The notes: generated by a model from the letters alone, not told the origin. Positions 6,556-22,580 are shown, counted from the first letter of the stretch. The stretch: 64,000 bases of DNA from Nitrospirota bacterium (GCA_963790025.1 CAWBMP010000004.1:1504001-1568000); one strand, 5' to 3'. Made by a program: numbers and translations.

Positions 6556-6629
6556 GGCGGTGTAGCTCAGCTGGTTAGAGCATGCGACTCATATTCGCAG
6601 TGTCCGGGGTTCGATTCCCTGCACCGCCA
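6556..6629 (+). tRNA. tRNA with CAT anticodon, most likely elongator tRNA-Met; CCA not encoded
   Basis: GGCGGTG/CACCGCC acceptor stem, TAGCTCAGCTGGTTAGAGC D arm, TGCGA-CTCATAT-TCGCA anticodon arm, GGTTCGATTCC T arm. Confidence 0.93.
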
Positions 6630-6899
6630 CTACCTTTTTGTTATGTCCGTGACCCCATAATTTGGCCGTTGCAAGTGTGGGGTTATTTATATAATAATTT
6701 AATATTTATAAAGTTATATCAATAAGATATAGACCTAATTAAATTGTTATATATAATAGCTCCCCGAACTTTACGGAACAAGCCGACGAAGCTATTTTCT
6801 TCAGACCGAAGCAATACCCGCGTTCTGCATTATTTTCACGCTTTTGGATTCCGAGGCTTGCCCTTTTAAATCCAACCGTACTAAGATTCTTACAACCCT

Positions 6900-7310: not shown

Positions 7311-8509
7311 TTATTTAGATAAGATGTACCCTCTGTTCTCCTTCAGCATCTTGAAAATAACACGGCAAAGATGACGACCAAGCGCACGTAGTGCCTGGTT
7401 ATGTTTCTTGCCTTCAGCTCTTTTTTTCTCATAATATTGTTGAGACTGCGGAACTTGTTTTCGGTGCCGATCTACGGCAACCATCATTGCGGCCTTAGCC
7501 CGAGTATTAACCTGCGTTGGTGGTTTTGATCCTTTTTGCTTGCCTGAACTATTGTCAAGATTCGCCATCCCAATATACAGAGCCAGACTTGCTTCGCTGC
7601 CAAAGCGCTCGATAGTTCCAATCTCTCCGGCGAGTTCAGATGTACAAATGGAACCGAATCCTGGAATGGTTGCGAGCGTTTGCGCAATATCCGAGCCGTG
7701 TGCAACACCCTCCATCTTTGCTTCAAGTGATTTTATCTTGGCATGGAGTTCCATCACGCGGATTGCATCTTCCTGGATCATTTCACCGACCCACTCGACG
7801 TCGTGACTAAACTGTGCTGTTTTCTGCCATTCAACAATAACAGAGGCATATTTCTTACCAATGCCCGGATCTTGCGGATAGTTGTTTCCCGCATGCGTGC
7901 AAGCGTGCGAAGGTCATCCGTGCTGGTCAGAAATCCAAGAAACCACATATTGTCGGCCTCACCGGTAATCTCCAGAAGTCCCGGACATACAGCGTGAAGA
8001 TCGGCCTGTAGGTTGTTTACTACCCGTACTCGCTCATCGACCAAACGACGCCGGCGCCGTGATAGCCGCTTTAGAATGTCGTTGTCCCGCGGCGTTTTGC
8101 GTACCTCCTGCAGCACATCCTTGGCTATCGGCAGATGATCTCGAAGCTGAAAAAGCTCCAGTCCTTTCCTTGCGTCGATTGCATCGGTCTTCGCGGCACC
8201 GGGGAATATCTCCTTGAATCGAGCAAGCTTGAGATTGTTGATATTGAAGAGGCGATAATTGCGGGCTCGAACGAGCGTGTCCAGCGGACGTGCGTAGCCG
8301 TTGAAGCCCTCCATTGCTACGGCAACGGGACAACTAAACCTTTGCTCCTGCTTCTCGATGCGACAGAAGAATTGCCGGAACCCTTCAGGTTCATGCACGA
8401 TTGAGAATTCATCGAGGACTTCACCGCTGGATAGGCCGATTGCAACGTTGTGACTGCGGCAGCCAATATCGACGCTTACACGCAGTTCGAGGGGATCATC
8501 TTTTTTCAT
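7311..8509 (-). CDS. IS110 transposase/recombinase, split by a one-base frameshift near 7865
   Basis: VSVDIG, VAMEGFNGY, KTDAIDA (RuvC-like DEDD) in 7778-8509; TIPGFG, Y.G......SSG, ALRALGRHL in 7311-7781; one added C restores KIPGIGKKYA. Confidence 0.88.
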
Positions 8510-9931: not shown

Positions 9932-12274
9932 GTGGATCAGGCAACGCACAATAAGATAGTTTCCTTTATCTGGGGCATCGCCGACGATGTTCTACGCGAC
10001 CTGTTCAAGCGTGGTAAATACCCCGATGTTATTTTGCCGATGTGCGTATTGCGCCGGCTCGATGCAGTGCTGGAGCCAACAAAGAAAGCTGTGATAGAAA
10101 CGAAGGAGATGCTCGATAAGGCCGGTATCACTGAGCAACGCGCTGCGCTTTGTCAGGCCGCTGAGCAGGCTTTTTACAATACCTCGAAGTTTACACTTCG
10201 CGATCTGAAATCCCGGGGTAGCCAACAGCAGCTGAAGGCCGACTTTGAAGCCTATCTCGATGGCTTCTCGCCCAACATTCAGGACATCCTAGAAAACTTC
10301 AAGTTTCGTAATCAGATTTCCACACTTTCGAAGTCCGACTCCCTCGGCACATTGATAGAAAAGTTTCTCGACACTGAAATCAACCTCAGTCCTAATCCTG
10401 TGCTCAATAGCGACGGTTCGGTGAAACACCCGGGTATGGACAACCACTCCATGGGTACCGTATTCGAGGAACTTGTCCGGAAGTTTAATGAGGAGAACAA
10501 CGAGGAGGCTGGCGAGCACTGGACCCCACGTGATGCCGTAAAGCTGATGGCCAACCTCATTTTTCTGCCTATTGCCGATGTTATACAGTCCGGCTCTTAT
10601 CTGCTCTACGACGGCGCACTCGGTACTGGTGGCATGCTCACTGTAGCGGAAGAAACACTGAGAGGTATTGCTTCTAAAAGCGGCAAGCAGGTAACCACGC
10701 ATCTCTATGGCCAGGAAATCAACCCTGAGACCTATGCTATCTGCAAGGCTGACATTATTTTGAAGGGCGAAGGTGAAAACGCCGACCACATCGTCGGCGG
10801 CGCTGAATGGTCCACGCTTTCGCATGATGCCTTCCCGGCTCGTGAGTTCGACTTTATGCTCTCCAACCCGCCTTACGGCAAGAGCTGGAAGAAAGACCTC
10901 GAAAATATGGGTGGCAAGGATAGTATGCGCGATCCTCGCTTCAAGATCACTCATGCAGATGACCCCGACTATTCCCTTGTTACCCGCTCCAGTGACGGCC
11001 AGATGCTGTTCCTGGCAAACATGGCTGCTAAGATGAATCACAAAACACCGCTGGGCAGCCGTATTGCCGAGGTTCATAACGGTTCGTCTCTTTTTACCGG
11101 AGACGCCGGACAAGGAGAGAGCAACATCCGGCGTTGGCTTATCGAAAACGATTGGCTTGAGGCTATTGTCGCCCTTCCGCTCAATCTTTTCTACAACACC
11201 GGCATTGCCACCTATATCTGGGTGCTTACCAATCGCAAGCCCGAGCATCGCAAGGGCAAGGTGCAGCTAATCGACTCAACTCAATGGTTCAAACCCCTGC
11301 GTAAGAATCTCGGTAAAAAGAACTGTGAACTCTCCGAGGAAGACATTCGCCTAATCTGTGACACCTATATAGCTTTCAAGGCAAACGAACAGTCAAAAAT
11401 ATTCCCCAACGAGCACTTCGGCTATTGGAAGGTCATTGTTGAGCGTCCGCTTCGCCTGCACAGTCAGCTTACAGTAAAATCCATCGAATCGCTACGCTTT
11501 GCCTCTGGTGACGAAGATATCCGCTCACAGCTCTACGATGAGTTTGGCGAGGCCCTGTTCGATAACTTCGTCAGTGTTGAGAAGTCGTTGGAAAAACGGC
11601 TGGCCGACTGGGGCGCGGGTGACGAAGAGGACGATGCCGAAGATGGCGCAACCGCGAAGAGGGGACTTCCGGAAAAGAAAAAGAAGAGGCTCCTCGATTC
11701 CAGGACTTGGGAGCGTGATGCCCGGTTCATGGAAACTGCTAATGTCCTGCGACAGGAAATCGGAGGTGATCTCTTTGAGGACCACAACATCTTTCGCAAG
11801 GTTGTTGAAACTGCGCTTGAAAAACTCGGACGCAAAGTCTCCCCTGCTGATTCGAAGCTTGTCCTCCGCGCTGTAAGTTGGAGGGTTGAAACTGCCCCCC
11901 CTGTTATAGCTAAGGTGCACAAACCGAGCAAGACCACACCCGACCCACTGCATGGGCGATATGAGGCCAAATTAGACGGCAAGCAATGCGTGATCGAATA
12001 CGAGCCTGACATCGACCTGCGTGACACGGAACAGATACCGCTTCTTGAACCCGGTGGTATCGAAGCATTCATCCGCTGTGAAGTGTTGCCATACACACCC
12101 GATGCATGGATAAAGAAAGACGCCACCAAGGTTGGCTACGAGATCAGTTTTACGCGGCACTTCTACAAGCCCCAGCCGCTACGCACGCTGAAAGAAATCC
12201 ACGCTGATATTCTCATAGTAGAAAAAGAGGCGGAAGGATTGCTGGACGAACTGCTCAAGGACGGGACGAAGTGA
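9932..12274 (+). CDS. hsdM: Type I restriction-modification methyltransferase subunit (N6-adenine)
   Basis: FIWGIADDVLRD, GEHWTPRD, GTGGML, GQEIN, NPPYG, FYNTGI.TYIW. Confidence 0.96.
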   Translation: MDQATHNKIVSFIWGIADDVLRDLFKRGKYPDVILPMCVLRRLDAVLEPTKKAVIETKEMLDKAGITEQRAALCQAAEQAFYNTSKFTLRDLKSRGSQQQLKADFEAYLDGFSPNIQDILENFKFRNQISTLSKSDSLGTLIEKFLDTEINLSPNPVLNSDGSVKHPGMDNHSMGTVFEELVRKFNEENNEEAGEHWTPRDAVKLMANLIFLPIADVIQSGSYLLYDGALGTGGMLTVAEETLRGIASKSGKQVTTHLYGQEINPETYAICKADIILKGEGENADHIVGGAEWSTLSHDAFPAREFDFMLSNPPYGKSWKKDLENMGGKDSMRDPRFKITHADDPDYSLVTRSSDGQMLFLANMAAKMNHKTPLGSRIAEVHNGSSLFTGDAGQGESNIRRWLIENDWLEAIVALPLNLFYNTGIATYIWVLTNRKPEHRKGKVQLIDSTQWFKPLRKNLGKKNCELSEEDIRLICDTYIAFKANEQSKIFPNEHFGYWKVIVERPLRLHSQLTVKSIESLRFASGDEDIRSQLYDEFGEALFDNFVSVEKSLEKRLADWGAGDEEDDAEDGATAKRGLPEKKKKRLLDSRTWERDARFMETANVLRQEIGGDLFEDHNIFRKVVETALEKLGRKVSPADSKLVLRAVSWRVETAPPVIAKVHKPSKTTPDPLHGRYEAKLDGKQCVIEYEPDIDLRDTEQIPLLEPGGIEAFIRCEVLPYTPDAWIKKDATKVGYEISFTRHFYKPQPLRTLKEIHADILIVEKEAEGLLDELLKDGTK

Positions 12275-13713
12275 TCGCCGACCTTGAGCCCTATCCGGAA
12301 TATAAGGAGTCGGGTCAGACGTGGCTTGGCTCGGTGCCGAAGCATTGGGAAGTCGCTCGTCTTGGCTCTATCGGTGTTTTTTCAGCGAGTGGCATAGACA
12401 AGAAAACAGTGCGGGGCCAGCCGCTAGTTCGAATGATTAATTACTTAGATATTTATAAGAACGCCTTCCATGAATTGCGAGCGAGCAGAGTCTACATGCA
12501 AGTAAGTTGCCCAGAATGGAAACGACGCGCCCATTCCGTCAGTGTTGGAGACATTTTTTTCACACCTAGCTCCGAAACCGAAGATGAAATCGGCTATTCT
12601 GCTGTTGCTGTAGAAGAGCTGCCGAACACTGTCTATAGCTATCACGTGATACGCTTCCAACCAAAACTTAATATAGACCTGAATTTTCGAAAATACTTCT
12701 GTAATAACCATAGAGTTCTTTCTCAGTTTTCTGTTGCATGTACGGGAACCACGCGCAAGATTCTTTCACGAGACGACTTCCGGAACATTATTATCACACT
12801 CCCCCCGTCAGACGAGCAATCCGCTATTGGCCGGTTTCTCGATCATGCAACCCGACGGATAGAGCGAGCTATGCGAGTTAAACAAGAGGTGATCGCGCTG
12901 CTGAACGAGCAGAAGCAGGTCATCATCCAACGCGCAGTCACCCGTGGACTCGATCCCAATGTGCCCTGTAGACCCTCTGGCAGTTCATGGATCAAGGATA
13001 TTCCAACGCATTGGAAGGTGTTACGGGCGAAATATGTCTTTCGCGAGATTGATGAGCGCTCAATCACCGGATCGGAGGAATTGTTATCTGTTTCCCACAT
13101 CACCGGGGTCACACCACGAAGTGAGAAAAACATCACTATGTTTAAGGCATCATCCTACATTGGCCACAAGCTCTGTCGTCCCGGGGATCTGGTAATCAAC
13201 ACGATGTGGGCATGGATGTCAGCGCTTGGTGTTTCAAAACTCATTGGTATTGTCAGTCCCTCCTACGCAGTCTACCGTCCGCGCAATCCCGAAAAGCTCG
13301 TCGACGAATACCTCGATCATCTTCTACGGACACGCTTATACGTATCTGAATATATATGCCGTTCAACCGGAATCAGATCGTCGCGGTTGAGGCTTTATCC
13401 AGAGGAATTCTTTAAGATTCCTATTCTTCTACCGCCTGTTGAGGAGCAGAAGAGAATAGTTCATCAAATATCTTCGAAGACTGCTGACATGAGTACTGCT
13501 ATCCACCGCACCGAGCGCGAAATCACCCTGCTTCGCGAATACCGCACCCGCTTGATCGCCGATGTAGTCACGGGCAAGCTTGATGTGCGCAAGGCGGCGA
13601 AGAATCTGCCGGATGAGGCGGCTGAATCGGGTATAATGATGGATGAGGATGAAATACCGGCTGGGGATGATGAGATGGGGGACGGAATGAGCGCTGAGGA
13701 TGGAGAGTTATGA
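12271..13713 (+). CDS. hsdS: Type I R-M specificity subunit with acidic C-terminal tail
   Basis: YPEYKESG..WLG.VP.HW, two TRDs with PP..EQ repeats, LLREYRTRLIADVVTGKLDVR. Confidence 0.94.
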   Translation: MIADLEPYPEYKESGQTWLGSVPKHWEVARLGSIGVFSASGIDKKTVRGQPLVRMINYLDIYKNAFHELRASRVYMQVSCPEWKRRAHSVSVGDIFFTPSSETEDEIGYSAVAVEELPNTVYSYHVIRFQPKLNIDLNFRKYFCNNHRVLSQFSVACTGTTRKILSRDDFRNIIITLPPSDEQSAIGRFLDHATRRIERAMRVKQEVIALLNEQKQVIIQRAVTRGLDPNVPCRPSGSSWIKDIPTHWKVLRAKYVFREIDERSITGSEELLSVSHITGVTPRSEKNITMFKASSYIGHKLCRPGDLVINTMWAWMSALGVSKLIGIVSPSYAVYRPRNPEKLVDEYLDHLLRTRLYVSEYICRSTGIRSSRLRLYPEEFFKIPILLPPVEEQKRIVHQISSKTADMSTAIHRTEREITLLREYRTRLIADVVTGKLDVRKAAKNLPDEAAESGIMMDEDEIPAGDDEMGDGMSAEDGEL

Positions 13714-14367
13714 GCCCTGTCCCTGCAGACCCCAAAATCTACCACATCACCCACCTGCGCAATTTGCCGGAGATTATTCAATCCGGCTGCCTTTGGTCTG
13801 ATGCCAAGCGCCTTGAGTTATGCCTTGACTGCGAAATCGTTGGCATGTCCGCGATCAAGCAGCGGCGACTAAAAGAAATTGAAGTCGATTGCAATTCGGG
13901 TACTAAAGTCGGTGAATACGTGCCCTTCTATTTTTGCCCTCGCTCGATAATGCTTTATATACTGCACATGGGCAACCATCCAGGATCTTAATTATCGGGA
14001 AGGGCAACACCCCATCGTGCATCTCCAGGCCGACCTGATGGCGACTATTCGATGGGCGAAGGATCATGGTGTCCTATGGGCCTTTTCTGATTGCAATGCT
14101 GGTACATACTACACCAATTTTTATAACCGAAGAAGAGATTTGGACAAGGTGAATTGGGCCGCTGTTCACTCGAGTGATTTCAGAGATATGCTTGTCAAAG
14201 AAGGCAAACAGGCCGAGTTTCTGGTCTATGAGTCCTTTCCCTGGCATCTGATAGAAAAAATCGGGGTTTGCGATACTCATATTGCTGATAAGGTGAATAT
14301 AATTTTGGATCGTGCCGGCATCACCCATCATCCGGCTATTCTTAAGAAGCCGTCATGGTATTATTAA
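13710..14367 (+). CDS. darT: DarT DNA ADP-ribosyltransferase toxin (DUF4433), split by a +1 frameshift at ~13983
   Basis: IYHITH..NL..I, YVPFYFCPRSIMLY, FSDCNAG, KQAEFLV; removing one G from CATCCAGGATCTT gives HPDLNYREGQ and joins both ORFs. Confidence 0.88.
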
Positions 14368-14382
14368 AGTAGGGGGGAAGTT

Positions 14383-15429
14383 ATGATAAAATTGCATCGC
14401 GGAGACATTCTAAAAGCTGATGCCGAGGCTCTGGTCAATACAGTAAACTGCGTTGGTGTTATGGGACGTGGTATTGCGCTGCAATTCCGCAAGAAATTCC
14501 CCGGGAATTACGAGGAATATCGGCAGATGTGCGACAAGGGCAAGCTCATGATTGGAATGATGATGGTCCACGATCTCCATAGTCTGATGAACCCTCGATT
14601 TATTATTAACTTTCCAACCAAGCGCCATTGGAAGGGGAAGAGCCGCATTGAGGATATTAAGGCGGGGCTAAAAGCTTTAGTCGAGGAAGTGCGTGCTTAT
14701 GGTATTCGCTCAATCGCGATTCCACCTCTCGGATGCGGACTGGGAGGGCTGGACTGGAATGATGTGCATCGGTTAATTGAAAAGGCTTTTAGTGAGCTTC
14801 CTGAAGTCCAGGTGTTTCTCTACGAACCTTCTGGAGCACCACCTGCCGAGGAGATGCCCAAAGAAAGGCGAATACCTCCGATGACCAGCGGGCGTGCTGC
14901 GCTACTGGGTCTGATGCAGCGTTATTTGCAAGCGGTTCTGGATCCATTTGTCTCGCTGTTGGAGATCCACAAACTGATGTATTTCATGCAGGAGAGCGGC
15001 GAAAATCTCAAACTGCGTTTTCAGAAGGGAACATACGGTCCTTATGCCGAGAACCTACGACATGTTTTAAGCGCTATCGAAGGGCATTTTATCAGCGGTT
15101 ATGGCGATGCCGAAGACCGTCCCGACAAGCAGATCGAGTTAATATCTGATGCTGTCGAGCATGCAGAATCGGTCTTGAGAGATAATCCTCAAACCATGGT
15201 TCGCTTTGATCGAGTAGTTGACCTGATCAAGGGTTTCGAAACTCCTTATGGAATGGAACTCTTATCAACCGTACATTGGGTTATTACACGAGATGACGCC
15301 GCAACAAGTGACGAGGCTATTTCCAAAACATACGCATGGAACGATAGAAAACGAATGTTTGCAGAGACACATATTCGACTGGCCCTGGATGTTTTACAGC
15401 GCAAGGGTTGGTTGAAGTTAGGCACATGA
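14383..15429 (+). CDS. darG: DarG antitoxin, macrodomain ADP-ribosyl glycohydrolase
   Basis: AEALVNTVNCVGVMGRGIALQF, INFPTKRHW, SIAIPPLGCGLGGLDW, HKLMYFMQE, GFETPYGMELLSTVHW. Confidence 0.93.
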   Translation: MIKLHRGDILKADAEALVNTVNCVGVMGRGIALQFRKKFPGNYEEYRQMCDKGKLMIGMMMVHDLHSLMNPRFIINFPTKRHWKGKSRIEDIKAGLKALVEEVRAYGIRSIAIPPLGCGLGGLDWNDVHRLIEKAFSELPEVQVFLYEPSGAPPAEEMPKERRIPPMTSGRAALLGLMQRYLQAVLDPFVSLLEIHKLMYFMQESGENLKLRFQKGTYGPYAENLRHVLSAIEGHFISGYGDAEDRPDKQIELISDAVEHAESVLRDNPQTMVRFDRVVDLIKGFETPYGMELLSTVHWVITRDDAATSDEAISKTYAWNDRKRMFAETHIRLALDVLQRKGWLKLGT

Positions 15430-18400
15430 CTTCAGATACCAGTGAAAAAGGCCTCGAAGACCTGATCATGCGCTACATGACTGGCAAAGATGGTCTCGCG
15501 CCGGTCTCTACTGAAGGTGTGGCGGAAGAGACTGAGTCTATTGGCGGTAGCGGTTGGATCGCAGGGCATGCGGTCTTCTACGATCGGGGTCACGCACTGG
15601 ATTCAGCAGAGCTCTTTTCCTTCCTCCAGGCCACCCAGCCGGAAGAGTTCAAAAAACTCGGTATTGGAAACTACAAAGACACGAAGGATATCGCACGTCT
15701 GAAGTTTTTCGCTCGATTAAGCAGCGATATCGCCAAGCGCGGTGTGATTGACGTGCTCCGGCACGGCATCAAACATGGGGCGCTTTCTTTCGACCTGTTT
15801 TATGGCACGCCCTCACCTGGCAACGACAAGGCGACACGGTTATTCTCTGCCAACCGGTTCAGCGTTACCCGTCAGCTTCGATACAGCCTAGATGAGACAC
15901 GCCGGGCACTGGATCTGTGCTTGTTTATCAACGGCCTGCCCTTTGCGACTTTCGAATTGAAGAATAGCCTGACAAAGCAGACAGTTGAGGATGCCATGGA
16001 GCAATACAGACGCGACCGAGACCCAAGGGAGACGCTGTTTCAGTTCGGGCGCTGCATGGTCCATTTCGCTATGGATGACCACGAGGTGCGGATGTGCACC
16101 GCATTGAAGGGCTCAAAGGCGCCAAGGATTCATGGTTTCTCCCCTTCAACCAGGGCTGGAACGAAGGTGCGGGCAATCCGCCCAACCCGGCGGCGTTAAA
16201 GACCGATTATCTATGGAAGAAGCATTCTGATTCCTCGGGGAATCACCGACATCATGGAAAACTATGCCCAGATCGTAGAGGAGAAGAACGAGAAGACGGG
16301 GAAGAAGAGGCGAGAGCAGATTTTCCCCCGCTATCACCAGCTCGACGTGGTGCGCAAACTTCTCGCCGATGTGGCGTGAAATGGCGCCGGGCAAACGGTA
16401 TCTCATCCAGCACTCTGCTGGCAGCGGCAAGTCGAACTCCATCGCCTGGCTGGCGCACCAGTTATCGGGCTGCGCAAGGACGATGAGGAGGTTTTCGACT
16501 CAATCATCGTCATCACCGACCGACGTATCCTCGATAGGCAAATTCGAGGCGACAATCAAGCAGTTTCGCCCAGGTTTGCGCGATTATCGGGCGTGCAAAA
16601 GCGACGCCAGTCGAAACCTGCAGCTTGCAAGTTCATAGAGAGCGGCAAGAAGATAATCATCACCACAGTGCAGACGTTCCCCTTCATCCTTGACGAGATC
16701 GGAGAGGAGCATCGGGGCAGGAAGTTCGCCATCATCATTGACGAAGCCCATTCCAGCCAGGGCGGCCGTACAGCTGCCGCAATGAGCATGGCATTGTCCG
16801 AGCCGGGAAGACAGGATAAACGAAACGACCGAGGACAAATCAACCGCATCATCGAGTCGCGGAAGATGCTGACCAACGCCAGCTACTTCGCCTTCACAGC
16901 CACGCCGAAGAACAAGACCCTGGAGATGTTCGGCAGCCATATCCGGGTGAGGACGAGGTGAAGCACCGTCCTTTCCACAGCTACACGATGAAGCAGGCAA
17001 TACAGGAGGGTTTCATTCTCGACGTGCTCAAGAGCTACACGCCAGTGGACAGCTACTACAGCCTCGTCAAGACCATCGAGGGCGATCCGGAATTCGACAT
17101 GAAGAAGGCGCAAGAAGAAACTGCGACAGCTACGTCGAGAGTCACGACAAGGCCATCCGGCGAAAGGCCGAGATCATGGTAGACCACTTCCATGAGCAGG
17201 TAATCGGTCAGAACAAGATCGGCGGGCAGGCGCGGGCGATGGTCGTCATGCGGCGGATCAACGGGCGATCCAGTATTTCTCATGCTTTCCGCGAGTACCT
17301 CGAGAAGACGGAAAAGCCCGTACAAGGCCATCGTCGCCTTCTCCGGCGAGCAGGAATACAGGCGGCGAGAAGGTCAGCGAGGCAAAGCTAAACGGGTTCC
17401 CGAGCAACGACATCGCGGACAAGATTCAGGAAGACCCATATCGCTTCCTCATCTGCGCCGACAAGTTCCAGACTGGCTACGACGAGCCGCTGCTGCACAC
17501 GATGTATGTGGACAAGCCGCTGTCCGGCATAAAAGCCGTGCAGACGCTCTCTCGCCTGAACCGGGCGCACCCCAAGAAACACGACGTGTTCGTGCTCGAC
17601 TTCCAGAACAACACAGAGACAATCAAGTATGCGTTTGCGGACTATTACCGCACCACCATCCTCAGCAAGGAGACGGATCCGAACAAACTCCACGATCTAA
17701 AAGAGGCATTGGACAGGTATCAGGTGTATGCGCCGGAGCAGGTTGAGACCCTGGTGAAGCCTCTATCTGGATGGTGCGGAGCGCGACAAACTCGATCCGA
17801 TTCTCGACACATGTGTGGCGGTGTATGATGAACGAGCTTGACGAAGACGGGCAGGTGGATTTCAAGGGCAAGGCCAAGGCGTTCACCCGCACATATGACT
17901 TCCTCGCGACAATTCTCCCATACGGCAACGCGGAGTGGGAAAAACTCTCGATTTTCCTGAAGTTTCTCATGCCGAAGTTGCCCGCACCCAAGGAAGAAGA
18001 CCTCGCAAAAGGAATCCTCGAAGCCATCGACATGGACAGCTATCGGGCTGAGAAGAAGGCTGCCATGAAAATTATGCTTTCTGACGAGAACGCAGAGATC
18101 AATCCCATGCCGGTTGACGATGGTCACAGAAAAGCGGAGCCAGAAATGGATAGGCTCAGCAACATTCTGAAGATGTTCAATGAACAGTTCGGGACCCTCT
18201 TTACCGACGGCGACCGTATTATCCGTCGGATCACCGAAGACATCGCCCCGAAGGTTGCCGAGGACCAACCCTATCAAAACGCCAAGAAAAACACTCCGGA
18301 TACGGCGCGTATTGAACTGGACGCTGCGCTAATGCGTGTGGTCGGTCCTTTGCTGAAGGACGACACCGAATTCTACAAGCAGTTCGTTCAGAACGAGTCG

Positions 18401-18463
18401 TTCAAACGATTTGTGACAGACATGGTTGTCAAACTCACAGGCGGATCGAACGTTTACAGGTAG
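15426..18463 (+). pseudogene. hsdR: Type I R-M restriction subunit, broken by many frameshifts between ~16100 and ~17830
   Basis: Collinear fragments in different frames: MTSDTSEKGLE, FELKN, FLPFNQG, RYHQLD, QHSAGSGKSNSI, IIDEAHSSQ, FAFTATPK, YTMKQAIQEGFILDV, KFQTGYDEP, VQTLSRLNR. Confidence 0.9.
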
Positions 18464-18688
18464 CCTTTATTAATTAGATGTGAGACATTTAGGCGGCGCA
18501 TAACACCTGATTCTGAACAGTCCCGACATCTCAGGAACACCGTTGATTTCCGGGTATAACCTTGCGTCGCGCATGTAGCTTGGTCATTTGGACGCACTGA
18601 CTGAAAGCAAGTAGTGATAAGATAGAATGGATAGGTCCGCGAAGATTGGCCCCGTAGGCATTTGACCAGCATGATCTTGTAATAATAA

Positions 18689-20020
18689 TTAAGAAGTAAG
18701 TAAGAGATTCAAAGATGCGATTTTTGTATTGTAAAACTCCCTAAAGACATCATCAACATTCTTTTTATTTTGAAACGTGTACATGTGCTCTATGCGGAAT
18801 GCATCTAAGGCTTTTGTAAGAACAAAATCAGCAATCTCCTTTCGTCCGATTACAGCAAGAGAGGGAGACAAAGACGAGAATTCGGCAACTATTTCTCTTT
18901 CGTAGTAATCAGTAATCAAATGTGCAGGATTTAAATCAAATATGAATAAGAAATCTGACATAGTTTTAAGAGTTAAATATTTTTGATCGCTCAATAATTT
19001 AGAGATAACAATGTTATATCTTTGAGACTCACCTAATAAAAGGGCAGCGCCGCGCTGCAGGATTCCAAGTGGCATTTTATATTGTAAGCCAAATGCATCT
19101 AAGTCAGTCCATGGTAACCTATCTAATACCGAAAAGCCAGACTGACTGATAAAATCTAAGAATAAAGACGATACATCATTTGATGACAAATCTTGAACAG
19201 CTTGTGATATGGCTTCCTCCAACTCAGATAAGTTACTGTTCAACTGATCGGGATTGTAAATCGGTCCTTTATTCCAATAATGCGAAAACTTACTAGCAAA
19301 TGATTCACAAGTTATATCTTTATTAAACTCGAAGATATGCTGCTCTTCATCTACCGGTAGATATTTCTGAACAGTCAGCCAATCCGGCGAATTCTCAACA
19401 AGAACATCAATGATTTTGTCTATTACCGCAGTCATGGTACCGTCTGCCTGTACCTCAATGACTTTTTCACCGAGGTTTCTAAGATACTCGATAGCTTCAG
19501 CATACTTCTTCTTTGTCTGGTTAAGATTCCTTTCGAAGAGCTCCTTTGTTTCTTGGCGATTCCTCATTCGATCATAACAGGTAGAACTACTCGCGTTTAA
19601 AAAAATGGTCAAGTCTGGTTTTAGAACACCTGAATTAAGGTTCATTATATTATCAAAAGAGAGGTCGCCATTACTCTGATAAACTAATGATGATAGATAA
19701 TAGCGATCACAAACAACAAGGCGCGGCGTTCCGTTTGCCTGATTGAGAAAAGGAATAATTTCCCTATCACAGTGATCAGCTCGATTGACCGCAAAGGCAA
19801 GAGCCAGTGTTCGGTGAGGAACATCTTTAAGTTTGCGCATTAATATTTGTCGGATAAATAGGCCAGCACAAGAAGGATCATGAGGTTCAAATGTCAACTT
19901 GACATTCTTGCCCAAGGTGGACTGAAGTATCTTAACCAACCGACGGGTTATTGAGCTTTTTCCTGACCCATCGACTCCTTCAATAACCACAAAAAAACCA
20001 TTAGTATTATTACTTTCCAT
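18689..20020 (-). CDS. Thymidylate (dTMP) kinase domain fused to a ~230 aa C-terminal domain of unknown function
   Basis: IEGVDGSGKSS P-loop, FEP, R..H, VCDRYYLSSLVYQ, KPDLTIFL; 443 aa versus ~210 aa for housekeeping Tmk. Confidence 0.85.
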   Translation of the reverse strand: MESNNTNGFFVVIEGVDGSGKSSITRRLVKILQSTLGKNVKLTFEPHDPSCAGLFIRQILMRKLKDVPHRTLALAFAVNRADHCDREIIPFLNQANGTPRLVVCDRYYLSSLVYQSNGDLSFDNIMNLNSGVLKPDLTIFLNASSSTCYDRMRNRQETKELFERNLNQTKKKYAEAIEYLRNLGEKVIEVQADGTMTAVIDKIIDVLVENSPDWLTVQKYLPVDEEQHIFEFNKDITCESFASKFSHYWNKGPIYNPDQLNSNLSELEEAISQAVQDLSSNDVSSLFLDFISQSGFSVLDRLPWTDLDAFGLQYKMPLGILQRGAALLLGESQRYNIVISKLLSDQKYLTLKTMSDFLFIFDLNPAHLITDYYEREIVAEFSSLSPSLAVIGRKEIADFVLTKALDAFRIEHMYTFQNKKNVDDVFREFYNTKIASLNLLLTS

Positions 20021-20143
20021 ATATTATATTAACTCTTTTATAATGTAGAACATCAAAATTAAATATTAGTAGATCTTATCCAATTATACAATCACTTTGT
20101 CAATTTAGAATATGATGCAGTCGGATCATATTCTATCAGTTCA

Positions 20144-21307
20144 TTAAGAAGATATGCTTTCAACCAGTTTAAGAAAAGCTGCTACCCAAGGTCCCGCAGC
20201 CAAATTTGTTAGTAACCCAGTGATTACAGTTCTGTTTTCAGAAGGCAGCTGGGCTATGGTCTCAGCTAAATGATTAATATTTTCCTGGGTTACTTTATGG
20301 GTGTCAGTTAAATCTTGTACTTGTCGAAGCATGTCCGATAAGCTCCCAGATAGTTCCTCATTCTTATTGGATATGAGAACCTTCAATTCATTTGTCAAAT
20401 TCTGAATTTCACTCATCAATAGTGTGTCAACCCTATATTCCTTATCGCCAAGCACTATTTTACGACCACTCATTTCAAATAGAGCTATAGCTTTATCGAT
20501 TGTCAAGAGAGCACCTCCATCAGAAAACGATGCTCTATTTGCAGGTACCTCATGAGCAATTCTACCCAAAGTGTTTCCTAAAACCGGAGGGCAAGTACAC
20601 ACAGGATTGTTACATTCTTTGCATTTATCAGGATACTCTTCCTTAAATGCTTTTGACAGAGGCTTGCCTCTGTCAGAATAGTGGACTTGGTTTTTCATGT
20701 CAATAAGATTTTGTAAATGCATTAGCCATGCAAAAACATCTGCTGCTTCACTTAAAAAATACCCTGGTGCAACATTAAATACCCGTAATGCCTCTGCGAG
20801 TTCCCCCAATTCTTCAGTAAACCTTGCGAAAGTTGCTGGGTAGTCCTCGACAGCTGACACCGTATAGATTTTTCCGAACATTTGTTGCCATTCTTTCAAA
20901 TTCTTCGGTTTATCTTTTATGTTTGTGTTGCCCAATTCTTGCAATCTATCCCAATCTGGACTGATGGGCAGTTTCTTCATTTCAATGCACTGATCATTAT
21001 CGTGAGGTTTTCGAAGACAGTAAGTACATGCATTTGGGAATTTCCACCATATCATATTCTCTACGCTCTGAACACCGACCTTTCCACAGAGTGTCATCCA
21101 CCATGCTATTGCTTTGGCGACAAATTGTTGAGGGTCAACATTTGCTTTCTTCTTCGAACTTGCTAAAAGACTTAGCGCGCCCATTACCTCAACAAGATGC
21201 GCAAATATCGAGAATTGATCACGGTAAAAATTTCTGTCCAAATAAATAGAATTAACCATACGATATAATTCGTCTAACCCTCTAACTTCCCAATCTTGAC
21301 TTTTCAC
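20144..21307 (-). CDS. Tandem MazG-like NTP pyrophosphohydrolase with Cys-rich motifs and a helical C-terminal extension
   Basis: EELGELAEA...EAADVFAW (EExxE..ExxD) in the second repeat, degenerate first repeat, CTYC..PH...C and CKEC...CTC motifs; GTG start with GGAG RBS. Confidence 0.82.
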   Translation of the reverse strand: MKSQDWEVRGLDELYRMVNSIYLDRNFYRDQFSIFAHLVEVMGALSLLASSKKKANVDPQQFVAKAIAWWMTLCGKVGVQSVENMIWWKFPNACTYCLRKPHDNDQCIEMKKLPISPDWDRLQELGNTNIKDKPKNLKEWQQMFGKIYTVSAVEDYPATFARFTEELGELAEALRVFNVAPGYFLSEAADVFAWLMHLQNLIDMKNQVHYSDRGKPLSKAFKEEYPDKCKECNNPVCTCPPVLGNTLGRIAHEVPANRASFSDGGALLTIDKAIALFEMSGRKIVLGDKEYRVDTLLMSEIQNLTNELKVLISNKNEELSGSLSDMLRQVQDLTDTHKVTQENINHLAETIAQLPSENRTVITGLLTNLAAGPWVAAFLKLVESISS

Positions 21308-21331
21308 GCAATTTCTCCGAAAACGATGCCT

Positions 21332-21349
21332 GATATCTGATCAGATATC
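21332..21349. promoter_or_regulatory. Perfect 18-bp palindrome upstream of the MazG-Tmk cassette (candidate operator)
   Basis: GATATCTGATCAGATATC, ~25 bp before the GTG at 21307. Confidence 0.45.
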
Positions 21350-21534
21350 GTATGAACCTATATCAGAATTAAAGTAGTATAAGATAGCATATTTGCACTA
21401 TCATGGGAAATTATTTCGAAAGGCTCGATATTCAAGCGGACTCGTAAGGTAAATCTTCCATGATAAAATACCTCTATGGAATACCACACCGGTACAAGTA
21501 GGAAAACAGTAGGCGCCCTTGAGATGGGCACAGT

Positions 21535-22580
21535 AGGGGTCAATTCTTTATTATTGACAAATAATTGCAAAATTTGGCAATATTTTTCGTGGCGAGACTA
21601 TTAAGAATTCAGTATCCGGGTGCCCTTTATCACGTAACGAGCAGGGGGAACGAGCGCAGGGAAATATTCAGCAACGATGATGATCGAGAGCACTTTCTGC
21701 AAATTCTTTGCAACTCACTGACCATCTACTCTGTAAAACTATATAGCTATGTACTGATGACGAACCATTTTCATTTATTAGCTGACACGCCCTTGGGCAA
21801 TCTCGGGGAATTCATGAGGCATTTTAATATTACGTATACTGGTTTTTATAACCGTAAATATAATAGGACTGGACATCTTTATCAGGGCAGGTACAAGAGC
21901 ATCCTTGTTGAGAAGGATGAATATCTGTCCATCGTAAGCCGGTATATACATCTCAATCCGGTAAGAACCAAGTCAATGAGGGAAAAGACTGCCGAAGAAA
22001 AAATAAATGACCTATTACAGTACAGATGGAGCAGCCTGTCAGGTTATATTGGTGGGAGAAAAGATCAAATGGTGCAATACGGCTTGGTTTTAGGGGAGTA
22101 TGGGGGAGATAATTATCATGGCCGGCAGGCATACAAAAAAAGGATTCAAAAGGATATAGCAGAGGGGCTGGAAATAAACTCAGGCATACTTGCACAGAGC
22201 GTGCTGGGCGGCCCTGAATTCATCAATATTATTAAAGAGAAATTCATCAAGGGGAAGAAAGACAGAGAAAGTCCGGCCCACAGAGAACTGAAGCGATACA
22301 AGGCTGAAGAAGAAATCATGAAGGTTATTGAGCGGGAAACGGGAATAAGTTTTAAGGAGATCGCTAAATCCAGGGGCGTTATAAGACAAATTGCTATGGA
22401 CATTTTATACCGTATCGGAGGATTGAAAGGGAATGAGATTGGCGAGATATTCAAAGTGGACTACAGCACTGTAAGTCAGGGGAGGAAACGTTTGCGGGAA
22501 CAAATGGAGAAAGATATAAAACTGAAGAATCTTGTTCGGTCTATCGAAGAACAATTGTCAAAATAAAAGAATTGACCCCT
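21535..22580 (+). mobile_element. Y1 HUH transposase element bounded by 26-bp imperfect inverted repeats
   Basis: AGGGGTCAATTCTTTATTATTGACAA (21535-21560) versus reverse complement of 22555-22580, 23/26 identical. Confidence 0.75.
21589..22566 (+). CDS. REP-associated tyrosine transposase-like protein (Y1_Tnp) with C-terminal DnaA_C-like HTH
   Basis: MARLLRIQYPGALYHVTSRGNER, YVLMTNHFHLL (HUH), GHLYQGRYKS, YIHLNPVR, YRWSS; likely GTG start at 21589. Confidence 0.9.
   Translation: MARLLRIQYPGALYHVTSRGNERREIFSNDDDREHFLQILCNSLTIYSVKLYSYVLMTNHFHLLADTPLGNLGEFMRHFNITYTGFYNRKYNRTGHLYQGRYKSILVEKDEYLSIVSRYIHLNPVRTKSMREKTAEEKINDLLQYRWSSLSGYIGGRKDQMVQYGLVLGEYGGDNYHGRQAYKKRIQKDIAEGLEINSGILAQSVLGGPEFINIIKEKFIKGKKDRESPAHRELKRYKAEEEIMKVIERETGISFKEIAKSRGVIRQIAMDILYRIGGLKGNEIGEIFKVDYSTVSQGRKRLREQMEKDIKLKNLVRSIEEQLSK

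Follow-up and report, generated by a model that had tools for sequence, protein, structure and literature searches.

Within a 64,000-nucleotide stretch of a Nitrospirota bacterium genome (GCA_963790025.1 CAWBMP010000004.1:1504001-1568000; hereafter the window), two neighbouring genes encode an all-alpha pyrophosphatase of (deoxy)nucleoside triphosphates and a thymidylate kinase (Tmk) carrying an additional C-terminal domain, here called Tmk-ext. They belong to two unannotated, rare families, and the pair looks like a new form of nucleotide-pool conflict system. Our preferred reading, to which we give a probability of roughly 0.4 from the sequence evidence, is that the two genes could form a defence or toxicity module directed at the pyrimidine deoxynucleoside triphosphate (dNTP) pool, with the pyrophosphatase as effector and the kinase as its partner.

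As reported in the preliminary description of this locus, both open reading frames (ORFs) are intact and co-oriented, lie 123 bp apart, and are rich in A and T. The GC content is 0.37-0.40 across 19-22 kb of the window, compared to 0.48-0.56 in the adjoining restriction/DarTG block and 0.44-0.52 over most of the window. The two genes probably form one transcript and a horizontally acquired cassette. The pyrophosphatase gene has a ribosome-binding site, GGAGA, at 21314-21318, 6 nt before its GTG start codon. A perfect 18-nt palindrome, ending 24 nt upstream of this start, is a possible operator, and upstream of it lies a promoter-like site (21404-21376), found in a scan that yielded no more sites than shuffled sequence.

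The catalytic motif, a profile match and the predicted fold, taken together, place the pyrophosphatase in the MazG-like superfamily. A total of 511 relatives were found, and the catalytic residues (E165-E166-x2-E169-x2-E172 and E187-x2-D190) are invariant in the 69 that were aligned. Searched against the PDB, the family profile retrieves Sulfolobus MazG (1vmg, E-value 2.5e-4), with a residue-by-residue alignment to its EExGE...ExxD motif. The AlphaFold2 (AF2) model has a mean confidence (predicted local distance difference test, pLDDT) of 87.4. Its best VIA-align matches are dimeric dUTPases, namely 5myd (Z 10.4, 147 aligned residues, root-mean-square deviation (rmsd) 3.4, model residues 7-231) and 1w2y (Z 8.8), values that fall in the range below about Z 13 where matches between helical proteins are possibly generic. 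MazG 1vmg superposes on the N-terminal repeat of the model (Z 6.9, rmsd 2.1, 83 residues), and other MazG proteins score near Z 5. Foldseek returned nothing from the PDB at E <= 0.001, and no Pfam, NCBIfam, PADLOC or PHROG model matches the protein (none of the MazG-type models, including PF03819, at E <= 0.1). The nearest Atlas cluster, with PF03819 on 23% of its members and a score of 0.89, is a lead only. The label 'MazG-like' with an intact EExxE..ExxD site, given initially, stands as regards the invariant motif, the 1vmg profile match and the fold, and has no counterpart in these four model collections.

In the AF2 model, the protein is predicted to consist of two MazG repeats in tandem, of which the N-terminal one is degenerate and the second one catalytic, an architecture as in dimeric dUTPases. 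Each repeat is followed by a cysteine cluster, and a helical extension comes last (Table 1). In the first cluster, C94 never varies among the 69 sequences, and conservation is 90% or more at C97, H102 and C107 (all four are invariant in a set of 23); in the second, the four cysteines are all invariant in the 69. The C-terminal extension is modelled as a helix bundle with a beta hairpin, has only generic helical-bundle matches in VIA-align, and is missing in most deaminase-fused relatives. Three family architectures are seen in the alignment: core plus extension, as in the window; an N-terminal CDA-type deaminase plus core; and deaminase, core and extension together. The N-terminal deaminase (PF00383) is present in 41 of the 120 relatives listed, and one metagenomic protein of 750 aa (P0303) has a PknB-like Ser/Thr kinase at the front, followed by a CDA-type deaminase and then by the pyrophosphatase core. 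By analogy, these fusions, the one with the Ser/Thr kinase included, recall the kinase-plus-deaminase composition of the defensive dCTP deaminase. The fused deaminase is closest to the RibD and TadA models, with scores below their cut-offs, and 'dCMP deaminase' is the name of the Pfam family only. A direct (Rosetta-stone) fusion of the pyrophosphatase to a Tmk was found in none of the longer relatives, where only the kinase-deaminase-pyrophosphatase protein occurs; this is weak evidence.

The partner had been described as a 443-aa dTMP kinase with intact P-loop and DRY motifs and an extra domain, and this description holds. Tmk-ext scores 115.8 bits against TIGR00041, above the curated cut-off of 83.25, and matches the Pfam Thymidylate_kin family (PF02223) over residues 13-202 with an E-value of 6e-33. 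Its relatives number 274; in 77 of them, E14, G15, D17, G18, G20, K21, D105, R106, Y107, R151 and R155 are invariant, covering the P-loop (G15-K21), the DRY motif (D105-R106-Y107) and the LID arginines (R151/R155), and the SS..YQ base-site motif is invariant or nearly so. The loop TFEPHDPS presumably stands where the usual Tmk has a TREPGGT-type loop. The AF2 model (pLDDT 87.0) superposes on Staphylococcus aureus Tmk (4dwj) with a VIA-align Z of 22.1 and an rmsd of 2.5 over 191 aligned residues, and Foldseek matches Tmk structures at E 1e-11. In structure searches with the full-length model, the matches are all taken up by Tmk. Tmk-ext is thus predicted, from motifs and model, to be a catalytically competent dTMP kinase. 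In a maximum-likelihood tree built quickly from 86 Tmk domains, with support from the Shimodaira-Hasegawa-like approximate likelihood ratio test (SH-aLRT) only, it sits in a clade apart from canonical Tmks.

The C-terminal alpha/beta domain (CTD) of Tmk-ext has no Pfam or PHROG match, and an Atlas feature search with residues 220-443 returned only unnamed clusters (score 0.79). A search of 1.84 billion representative proteins with a CTD profile found 76, nearly all with the CTD at residues ~210-440 of proteins of 380-470 aa. From this placement, the domain appears to exist essentially only as an extension of Tmk. The idea that the CTD is a degenerate second Tmk was ruled out, with an hhalign probability of 0.2 and no profile likeness to the kinase domain.

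The genome that carries the window has a second, canonical tmk (214 aa, 186.6 bits) elsewhere on the same contig, as well as a trimeric dut at another place. The gene pair is therefore accessory in its genome, Tmk-ext is not the genome's only thymidylate kinase, and its essentiality gives no clue to dTMP phosphorylation in vivo. Both families are sparsely distributed. Among 401 genomes of the window's phylum, the pyrophosphatase and the CTD were each found in one, the window's own; the pyrophosphatase occurs in one of 201 genomes from the phylum of an Anaerolineales metagenome-assembled genome (MAG), on the Chloroflexota side, and the CTD in none of 301 from the phylum of a Bacteroidales MAG, on the Bacteroidota side. 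The viral contigs of IMG/VR contain no pyrophosphatase relative and a single weak Tmk match. Judged by these counts, both genes appear to be rare, sporadic, cellular and horizontally moved. The nearest relatives of the two window proteins (87% and 92% identity) are listed with the same longest contig, of 32,687 bp, which suggests that the pair moves as a unit.

Evidence for a functional link comes from the neighbourhood of other family members. Twenty-five pyrophosphatase loci (L numbers) were taken from genomes, of which 24 were confirmed with the family hidden Markov model, and a Tmk was counted as a neighbour when adjacent or one gene off. A Tmk-family neighbour is present at 10 of the 24 (L011, L013, L015, L017, L018, L020, L021, L022, L024, where it is a fragment, and L025). 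These neighbours fall in at least four separate places of the Tmk tree: among canonical Tmks (L018, L020), in the groups L013/L015/L025 and L017/L022, and in the extended-Tmk clade (L021). Since a gene that occurs roughly once per genome is found at 10 of 24 loci and from four lineages, chance cannot account for the adjacency, and the functional link of the pyrophosphatase is to dTMP-kinase activity in itself. The neighbouring Tmk is the only or the best-scoring one of the genome in G401, G405, G406 and G410, and an extra copy in G402, G403, G407 and G408. The gene order is pyrophosphatase then Tmk in the window, L018, L020, L021, L025, L029 and L057, and reversed or convergent in L011, L013, L015, L017 and L022. 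The exact pairing of the pyrophosphatase with an extended Tmk is seen in the window, L029/L030, L057 and L021. The Tmks of the window, L021, L029 and L057 lie inside one 15-row extended-Tmk clade with 99% support. Since the paired loci are only 46-59% identical, comparison of the sequences indicates that pairing of the window type is genuine and old.

The pyrophosphatase is also found close to defence genes. The surroundings of 19 of its loci (L022-L026 were not among them) were scanned with PADLOC (E <= 1e-10, up to 4.5 kb from the gene), and credible defence genes were found in 8 of the 19, a count that has no random-locus background and depends on our own judgement in sorting credible from generic matches. 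They comprise AbiU and an LmuA/PDC-S45-like protease (L003), Type III Mod and Res on either side of the pyrophosphatase gene (L005), a PDC-M36A-like protein and Mrr (L006), a CARF protein with a methyltransferase (L007), a DrmD/BrxH-like helicase (L010), a SIR2-STAND protein with PDC-S15 (L014), PDC-M30/M41 (L016) and a Type I methyltransferase (L019). By Pfam, other pyrophosphatase loci show ParE (L013), HEPN, AbiEi and integrase. The defence-score threshold in Tal et al. (10.1101/2021.04.26.441389) is given as >0.33, for a different window size.

What is observed comprises intact genes and catalytic motifs, the folds, the rarity and accessory status of the pair and the recurrent adjacency of pyrophosphatase and Tmk; the substrate, the infection trigger, the defence role and the division of labour are inferred, as follows. 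The cassette would act on the pyrimidine deoxynucleotide pool. The pyrophosphatase is expected to be active and would most likely cleave a pyrimidine dNTP, with dUTP, dCTP, dTTP or a modified analogue as candidate substrates, to the monophosphate (dNMP) and pyrophosphate, serving as the effector of a nucleotide-depleting anti-phage or toxic module. A P-loop-kinase function, which in the validated dCTP-deaminase defence proteins is part of the same chain, would here come from the kinase as a separate protein. The kinase could buffer or rebuild the host dTTP pool, gate the effector by binding a dNMP, or take part in an ATP-wasting cycle with a partner that hydrolyses dTTP/dUDP. The logic would parallel that of dCTP deaminase/AvcD, with the pyrophosphatase replacing deamination or adding to it. 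Other extended Tmks repeatedly have an HD dNTPase-like gene beside them, in L040, L043 (189.5 bits on the PADLOC dGTPase model) and L044, as do short Tmks in L096 and L097, a parallel theme of dNTP hydrolase plus Tmk that counts in favour of this reading.

Should the family prove defensive, it would contribute an effector of the pyrophosphatase type with modular links to deaminases, protein kinases and thymidylate kinases, and a rare case of an immune gene that repeatedly recruits, or inserts beside, the gene of a core DNA-precursor enzyme (tmk). Even if the role is metabolic, a compact unannotated dUTPase-like family with two cysteine clusters and a 76-cluster family of extended thymidylate kinases are new.

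Several observations weigh against the proposed pool-directed module. The comparative evidence indicates that the two genes are not a fixed unit, and that their pairing is facultative: among about 47 extended-Tmk loci from metagenomes, only three contigs carry the pyrophosphatase (two distinct, L029/L030 having the same sequence, and L057), and the CTD was found nowhere in the five genomes that hold L003, L004, L005, L014 and L019, the first three of which carry the closest relatives of the pyrophosphatase with the same architecture (42-47% identity). The extended Tmks mostly have ordinary surroundings such as CysS, ribosomal protein L19 and PolA, with credible defence matches at about 4 of 27 loci in the same scan (L043, L044, L052, L072). 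PADLOC finds almost nothing in the neighbourhood of the Tmk-linked pyrophosphatase loci L011, L013, L015, L017, L018, L020 and L021. Linkage to Tmk and a defence context therefore rarely coincide outside the window, which argues against a simple two-gene system. Moreover, pyrimidine specificity is unproven, because the fused deaminase is nearest to RibD and TadA and not to dCMP deaminase. The possibly generic structural matches and the lack of a background for the defence counts have to be weighed on the same side. The nucleotide-pool anti-phage function advanced in the preliminary description is supported in part: the linkage of the pyrophosphatase to Tmk and its frequent position near defence genes speak in favour, whereas from the kinase side the tie to the pyrophosphatase is weak and defence neighbours are few. 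The roles of sensor, activator or antitoxin offered there for the kinase are putative.

Attack on the nucleotide pool is an established immune strategy, with dCTP deaminase/AvcD, dGTPases and ATP nucleosidases as examples. The closest parallel is dCTP deaminase/AvcD, which shares with the window pair the action on nucleotide pools and the coupling of a P-loop nucleotide kinase to an enzyme converting pyrimidine nucleotides, as proposed here; a CDA-type deaminase is moreover carried by many relatives of the pyrophosphatase. For the defensive dCTP deaminase, the available text of Tal et al. (10.1101/2021.04.26.441389) states that both the kinase and the deaminase motifs are required for defence. 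That protein combines an N-terminal kinase with a C-terminal zinc deaminase and has no all-alpha pyrophosphatase, whereas both window proteins lack a deaminase, their kinase is encoded separately and belongs to the true Tmk family, and the relatives in the window family join the deaminase to the pyrophosphatase, not to the kinase. The PADLOC dCTP-deaminase/AvcD models match neither the window proteins nor the fused relatives P0068 and P0059, and the fused relatives have no match to any other PADLOC model either. Compared to the dimeric dUTPase/MazG superfamily (5myd, 1w2y, 1vmg), the pyrophosphatase shares, in its model, the tandem four-helix repeats and, in sequence, the EExxE...ExxD metal site but lacks a match to the Pfam MazG or dimeric-dUTPase models, and its two conserved cysteine clusters and 118-residue extension are specific to the window family. 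Likewise, Tmk-ext has the kinase domain, catalytic motifs and fold of Tmk (TIGR00041, PF02223), but it is a second genomic copy with a 229-residue CTD.

The view that the pair is no named system was sustained with PADLOC v2. Tmk-ext does match two of its models, PDC-M51B (E 8.4e-18) and VakA (2.2e-9), but the match to PDC-M51B is generic Tmk similarity and not specific, because the housekeeping Tmk of the same genome scores equally well (64.7 bits, and 62.8 bits for Tmk-ext). No PADLOC model for a PDC-M51 partner matches the pyrophosphatase. Literature searches within the searchable library found no mention of PDC-M51 and no description of this pyrophosphatase-Tmk pair. In the available text of the DefensePredictor study (PMC13092281), MazG and a 'MazG-C predicted nucleotide kinase' are among predicted, unvalidated defence domains, and several predicted nucleotide-modifying domains, which are not named there, are credited to earlier bioinformatic prediction (ref. 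59). As far as that text goes, the likeness consists in an NTP pyrophosphohydrolase and a predicted nucleotide kinase marked as likely defensive; those candidates are Pfam-recognisable MazG/MazG-C proteins of E. coli-type genomes, whereas the window pair matches neither family and its kinase is a true Tmk.

The main rival to the conflict-system reading is an accessory module for pyrimidine housekeeping or sanitation, kept as a fitness gene of the island: an enzyme of the dUTPase/dCTPase type would clear dUTP or non-canonical pyrimidine dNTPs to dUMP, the deaminase-fused relatives would lead dCTP through dCMP to dUMP, and the extra Tmk would push the flux to dTTP. We consider it unlikely on balance. 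It agrees with the fold, which is nearest to dimeric dUTPases, with the position of the pyrophosphatase gene beside the best Tmk in G401 and G410, and with the mostly ordinary contexts and few defence neighbours of the extended-Tmk genes. In two Chloroflexota genomes, G405 and G406, the gene lies directly upstream of the sole housekeeping tmk, an arrangement that fits plain metabolism equally well and so also counts against a conflict function; no trimeric dUTPase match was found in these two MAGs of unknown completeness. Human DCTPP1, an all-alpha enzyme described as serving pool homeostasis (PMC7162842), offers a precedent. The extremely sporadic spread (1/401, 1/201 and 0/301 genomes) would be odd for a metabolic benefit, in particular where dut and tmk are already in the genome, and the defence neighbours at 8 of 19 loci, with one gene between Type III Mod and Res, the fusion of one relative to a Ser/Thr kinase, and the cysteine clusters and C-terminal extension, superfluous for a simple dUTPase, all speak for something else. 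We judge it fairly improbable that the island is stabilised by a toxin-antidote (addiction) pair, in which the pyrophosphatase would drain dTTP, dCTP or dUTP, the kinase would regenerate the diphosphate, and any effect on phages would be secondary. The compactness of the pair, its conserved order in the seven loci given above, the palindrome at the promoter, DarTG in the island and ParE near L013 would suit such a role, as would the fact that some elements carry their own Tmk and others insert beside the host tmk. Yet 14 of the 24 pyrophosphatase loci have no Tmk nearby, the order is reversed or convergent in five others, and a kinase alone cannot reverse pyrophosphate loss without Ndk and ATP.

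An 'anti-anti-restriction' nucleotide filter strikes us as improbable: the pyrophosphatase would destroy the modified pyrimidine dNTPs of phages (such as 5-hydroxymethyl-dUTP/dCTP and kin), the deaminase fusions would convert cytosine derivatives as well and the Tmk would supply canonical dTTP, so that a modified-base phage would have to make ordinary DNA and would regain its sensitivity to the restriction systems next to or inside which the genes lie. In a variant of like novelty, the extended Tmk would be a dNMP-sensing switch whose effectors are exchangeable, namely a multi-pass membrane protein, an HD dNTPase and the MazG-like pyrophosphatase. MazG-like pyrophosphatases, HD dNTPases and dNMP kinases are known to co-occur in phage pathways of base replacement. 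The cassette could accordingly be a remnant of a phage or mobile-element pathway that makes or handles modified thymidine or cytidine nucleotides, and the pairing of Tmk-ext kin with HD enzymes and the adjoining Y1 transposase element would be in keeping with this origin. It is made very improbable by the near absence of both families from IMG/VR, by the lack of a PHROG match for either the pyrophosphatase or the CTD, and by a cassette that contains no thymidylate-synthase-like, glycosyltransferase or other modification gene. Hardly credible, finally, is a chance meeting of two unrelated accessory genes. Each family is mostly found without the other, but both are very rare and nevertheless adjacent in the window, L029/L030, L057 and L021, and some Tmk lineage is next door at 10 of the 24 pyrophosphatase loci.

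Table 1. Coordinates of the gene pair, its domains and the flanking features in the window.
Feature	Position	Strand	Basis or remark
Tmk-ext gene, 443 aa, ATG start	18689..20020	-	ORF and translation
Tmk kinase domain, residues 8-213; P-loop, DRY, LID arginines and SSLVYQ thymine-site motif intact	19382..19999	-	Structure match, conserved columns
C-terminal alpha/beta domain (CTD), residues 215-443	18692..19378	-	CTD profile search
Pyrophosphatase gene ('MazG-core' family), 387 aa, all-alpha (d)NTP pyrophosphatase, GTG start	20144..21307	-	ORF and translation
Degenerate four-helix MazG-like repeat at the N-terminus, residues 7-92; H37 and E40 invariant	21032..21289	-	VIA-align to 1vmg; invariant columns
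Cysteine cluster 1, C94-x2-C97-x4-H102-x4-C107, putative Zn site	20987..21028	-	Conservation; Zn binding presumed
Catalytic MazG repeat, residues 137-205; E165, E166, E169, E172, E187, D190	20693..20899	-	Invariance; 1vmg alignment
Cysteine cluster 2, C229-x2-C232-x4-C237-x-C239, putative Zn site	20591..20623	-	Conservation; Zn binding presumed
C-terminal helical extension, residues 270-387 (118 residues)	20147..20500	-	Alignment blocks; AF2 model
Perfect 18-nt palindrome, GATATCTGATCAGATATC	21332..21349	.	Direct sequence reading; candidate operator
tRNA-Met	6556-6630		Island flank
hsdM, hsdS, darT, darG, hsdR	9932-18463		One side of the pair
Y1 transposase with DnaA-C helix-turn-helix	21565-22566		Other side of the pair

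The setting described at the outset, a type I restriction-modification/DarTG locus, a Y1 transposase and a tRNA, is present in all its parts, and several of the genes are split. The darG gene is intact (14383-15429; PADLOC DarG match at E 9e-136), whereas darT is broken over two frames (13710-13991 and 14017-14367). The hsdR gene consists of at least five ORF fragments in differing frames (15408-18463), in a stretch with an unusually high GC content (0.56) and an AT skew of +0.2. An IS110-family transposase (7311-8509) is represented by two overlapping ORFs, DEDD_Tnp_IS110 (7778-8509) and Transposase_20 (7311-7781), reflecting a frameshift or an assembly indel. Because darT, hsdR and the IS110 transposase are split, these neighbouring systems look decayed, or else the assembly carries indels in that stretch. 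The small ORFs at 18454-18672 and 21358-21570 have homologues in none of the fetched loci and are probably spurious. The Y1 transposase (IS200-like/RAYT-like) is part of a self-contained element (21535-22580) between 26-nt inverted repeats that are 88% complementary. A Y1 transposase with 40% identity to it lies two genes away from the pyrophosphatase relative in L019.

Other gene arrangements were noted around the extended Tmks. In L045, L047, L048 and L053, a multi-pass membrane protein of ~400 aa without Pfam or PADLOC match is encoded directly upstream of the extended Tmk; two separate subclades of Tmk-ext show this pairing, which in L048 and L053 has DDE transposases at its flanks. The upstream partners c9, c3, c10, c8, c16 and c32 were considered as hidden MazG relatives and ruled out (hhalign probability <= 0.5%); c9 is a multi-pass membrane protein. 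A second, short Tmk lies beside the extended Tmk in L028 and L044. A gene for an R3H/SpoIIIAA-like ATPase neighbours the housekeeping tmk in the related loci L018 and L044. In L018 the pyrophosphatase gene lies between this ATPase gene and tmk, and in L044 tmk is followed closely by an extended Tmk and an HD phosphohydrolase. To judge by these loci, accessory genes concerned with nucleotides seem to insert at the tmk locus.

A tandem pair of weak Tmk-like paralogues is present in four of the ten genomes checked for Tmk copies (G403:C4, G407:C69, G409:C93 and G410:C21, corresponding to L111-L114); the paralogues score 64-88 bits on TIGR00041 and are not related to the extended Tmk (distant, 13-37 bits). 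A common array in the metagenomic loci L103, L105, L106 and L107 combines an ATP-cone uridine-kinase-like gene, three tandem Tmk paralogues, a dCTP-deaminase/dUTPase-like gene, a 481-aa gene without assignment, a NACHT-FGE-sulfatase-domain protein and a stand-alone CTD-like ORF, and looks like another nucleotide-centred conflict locus.

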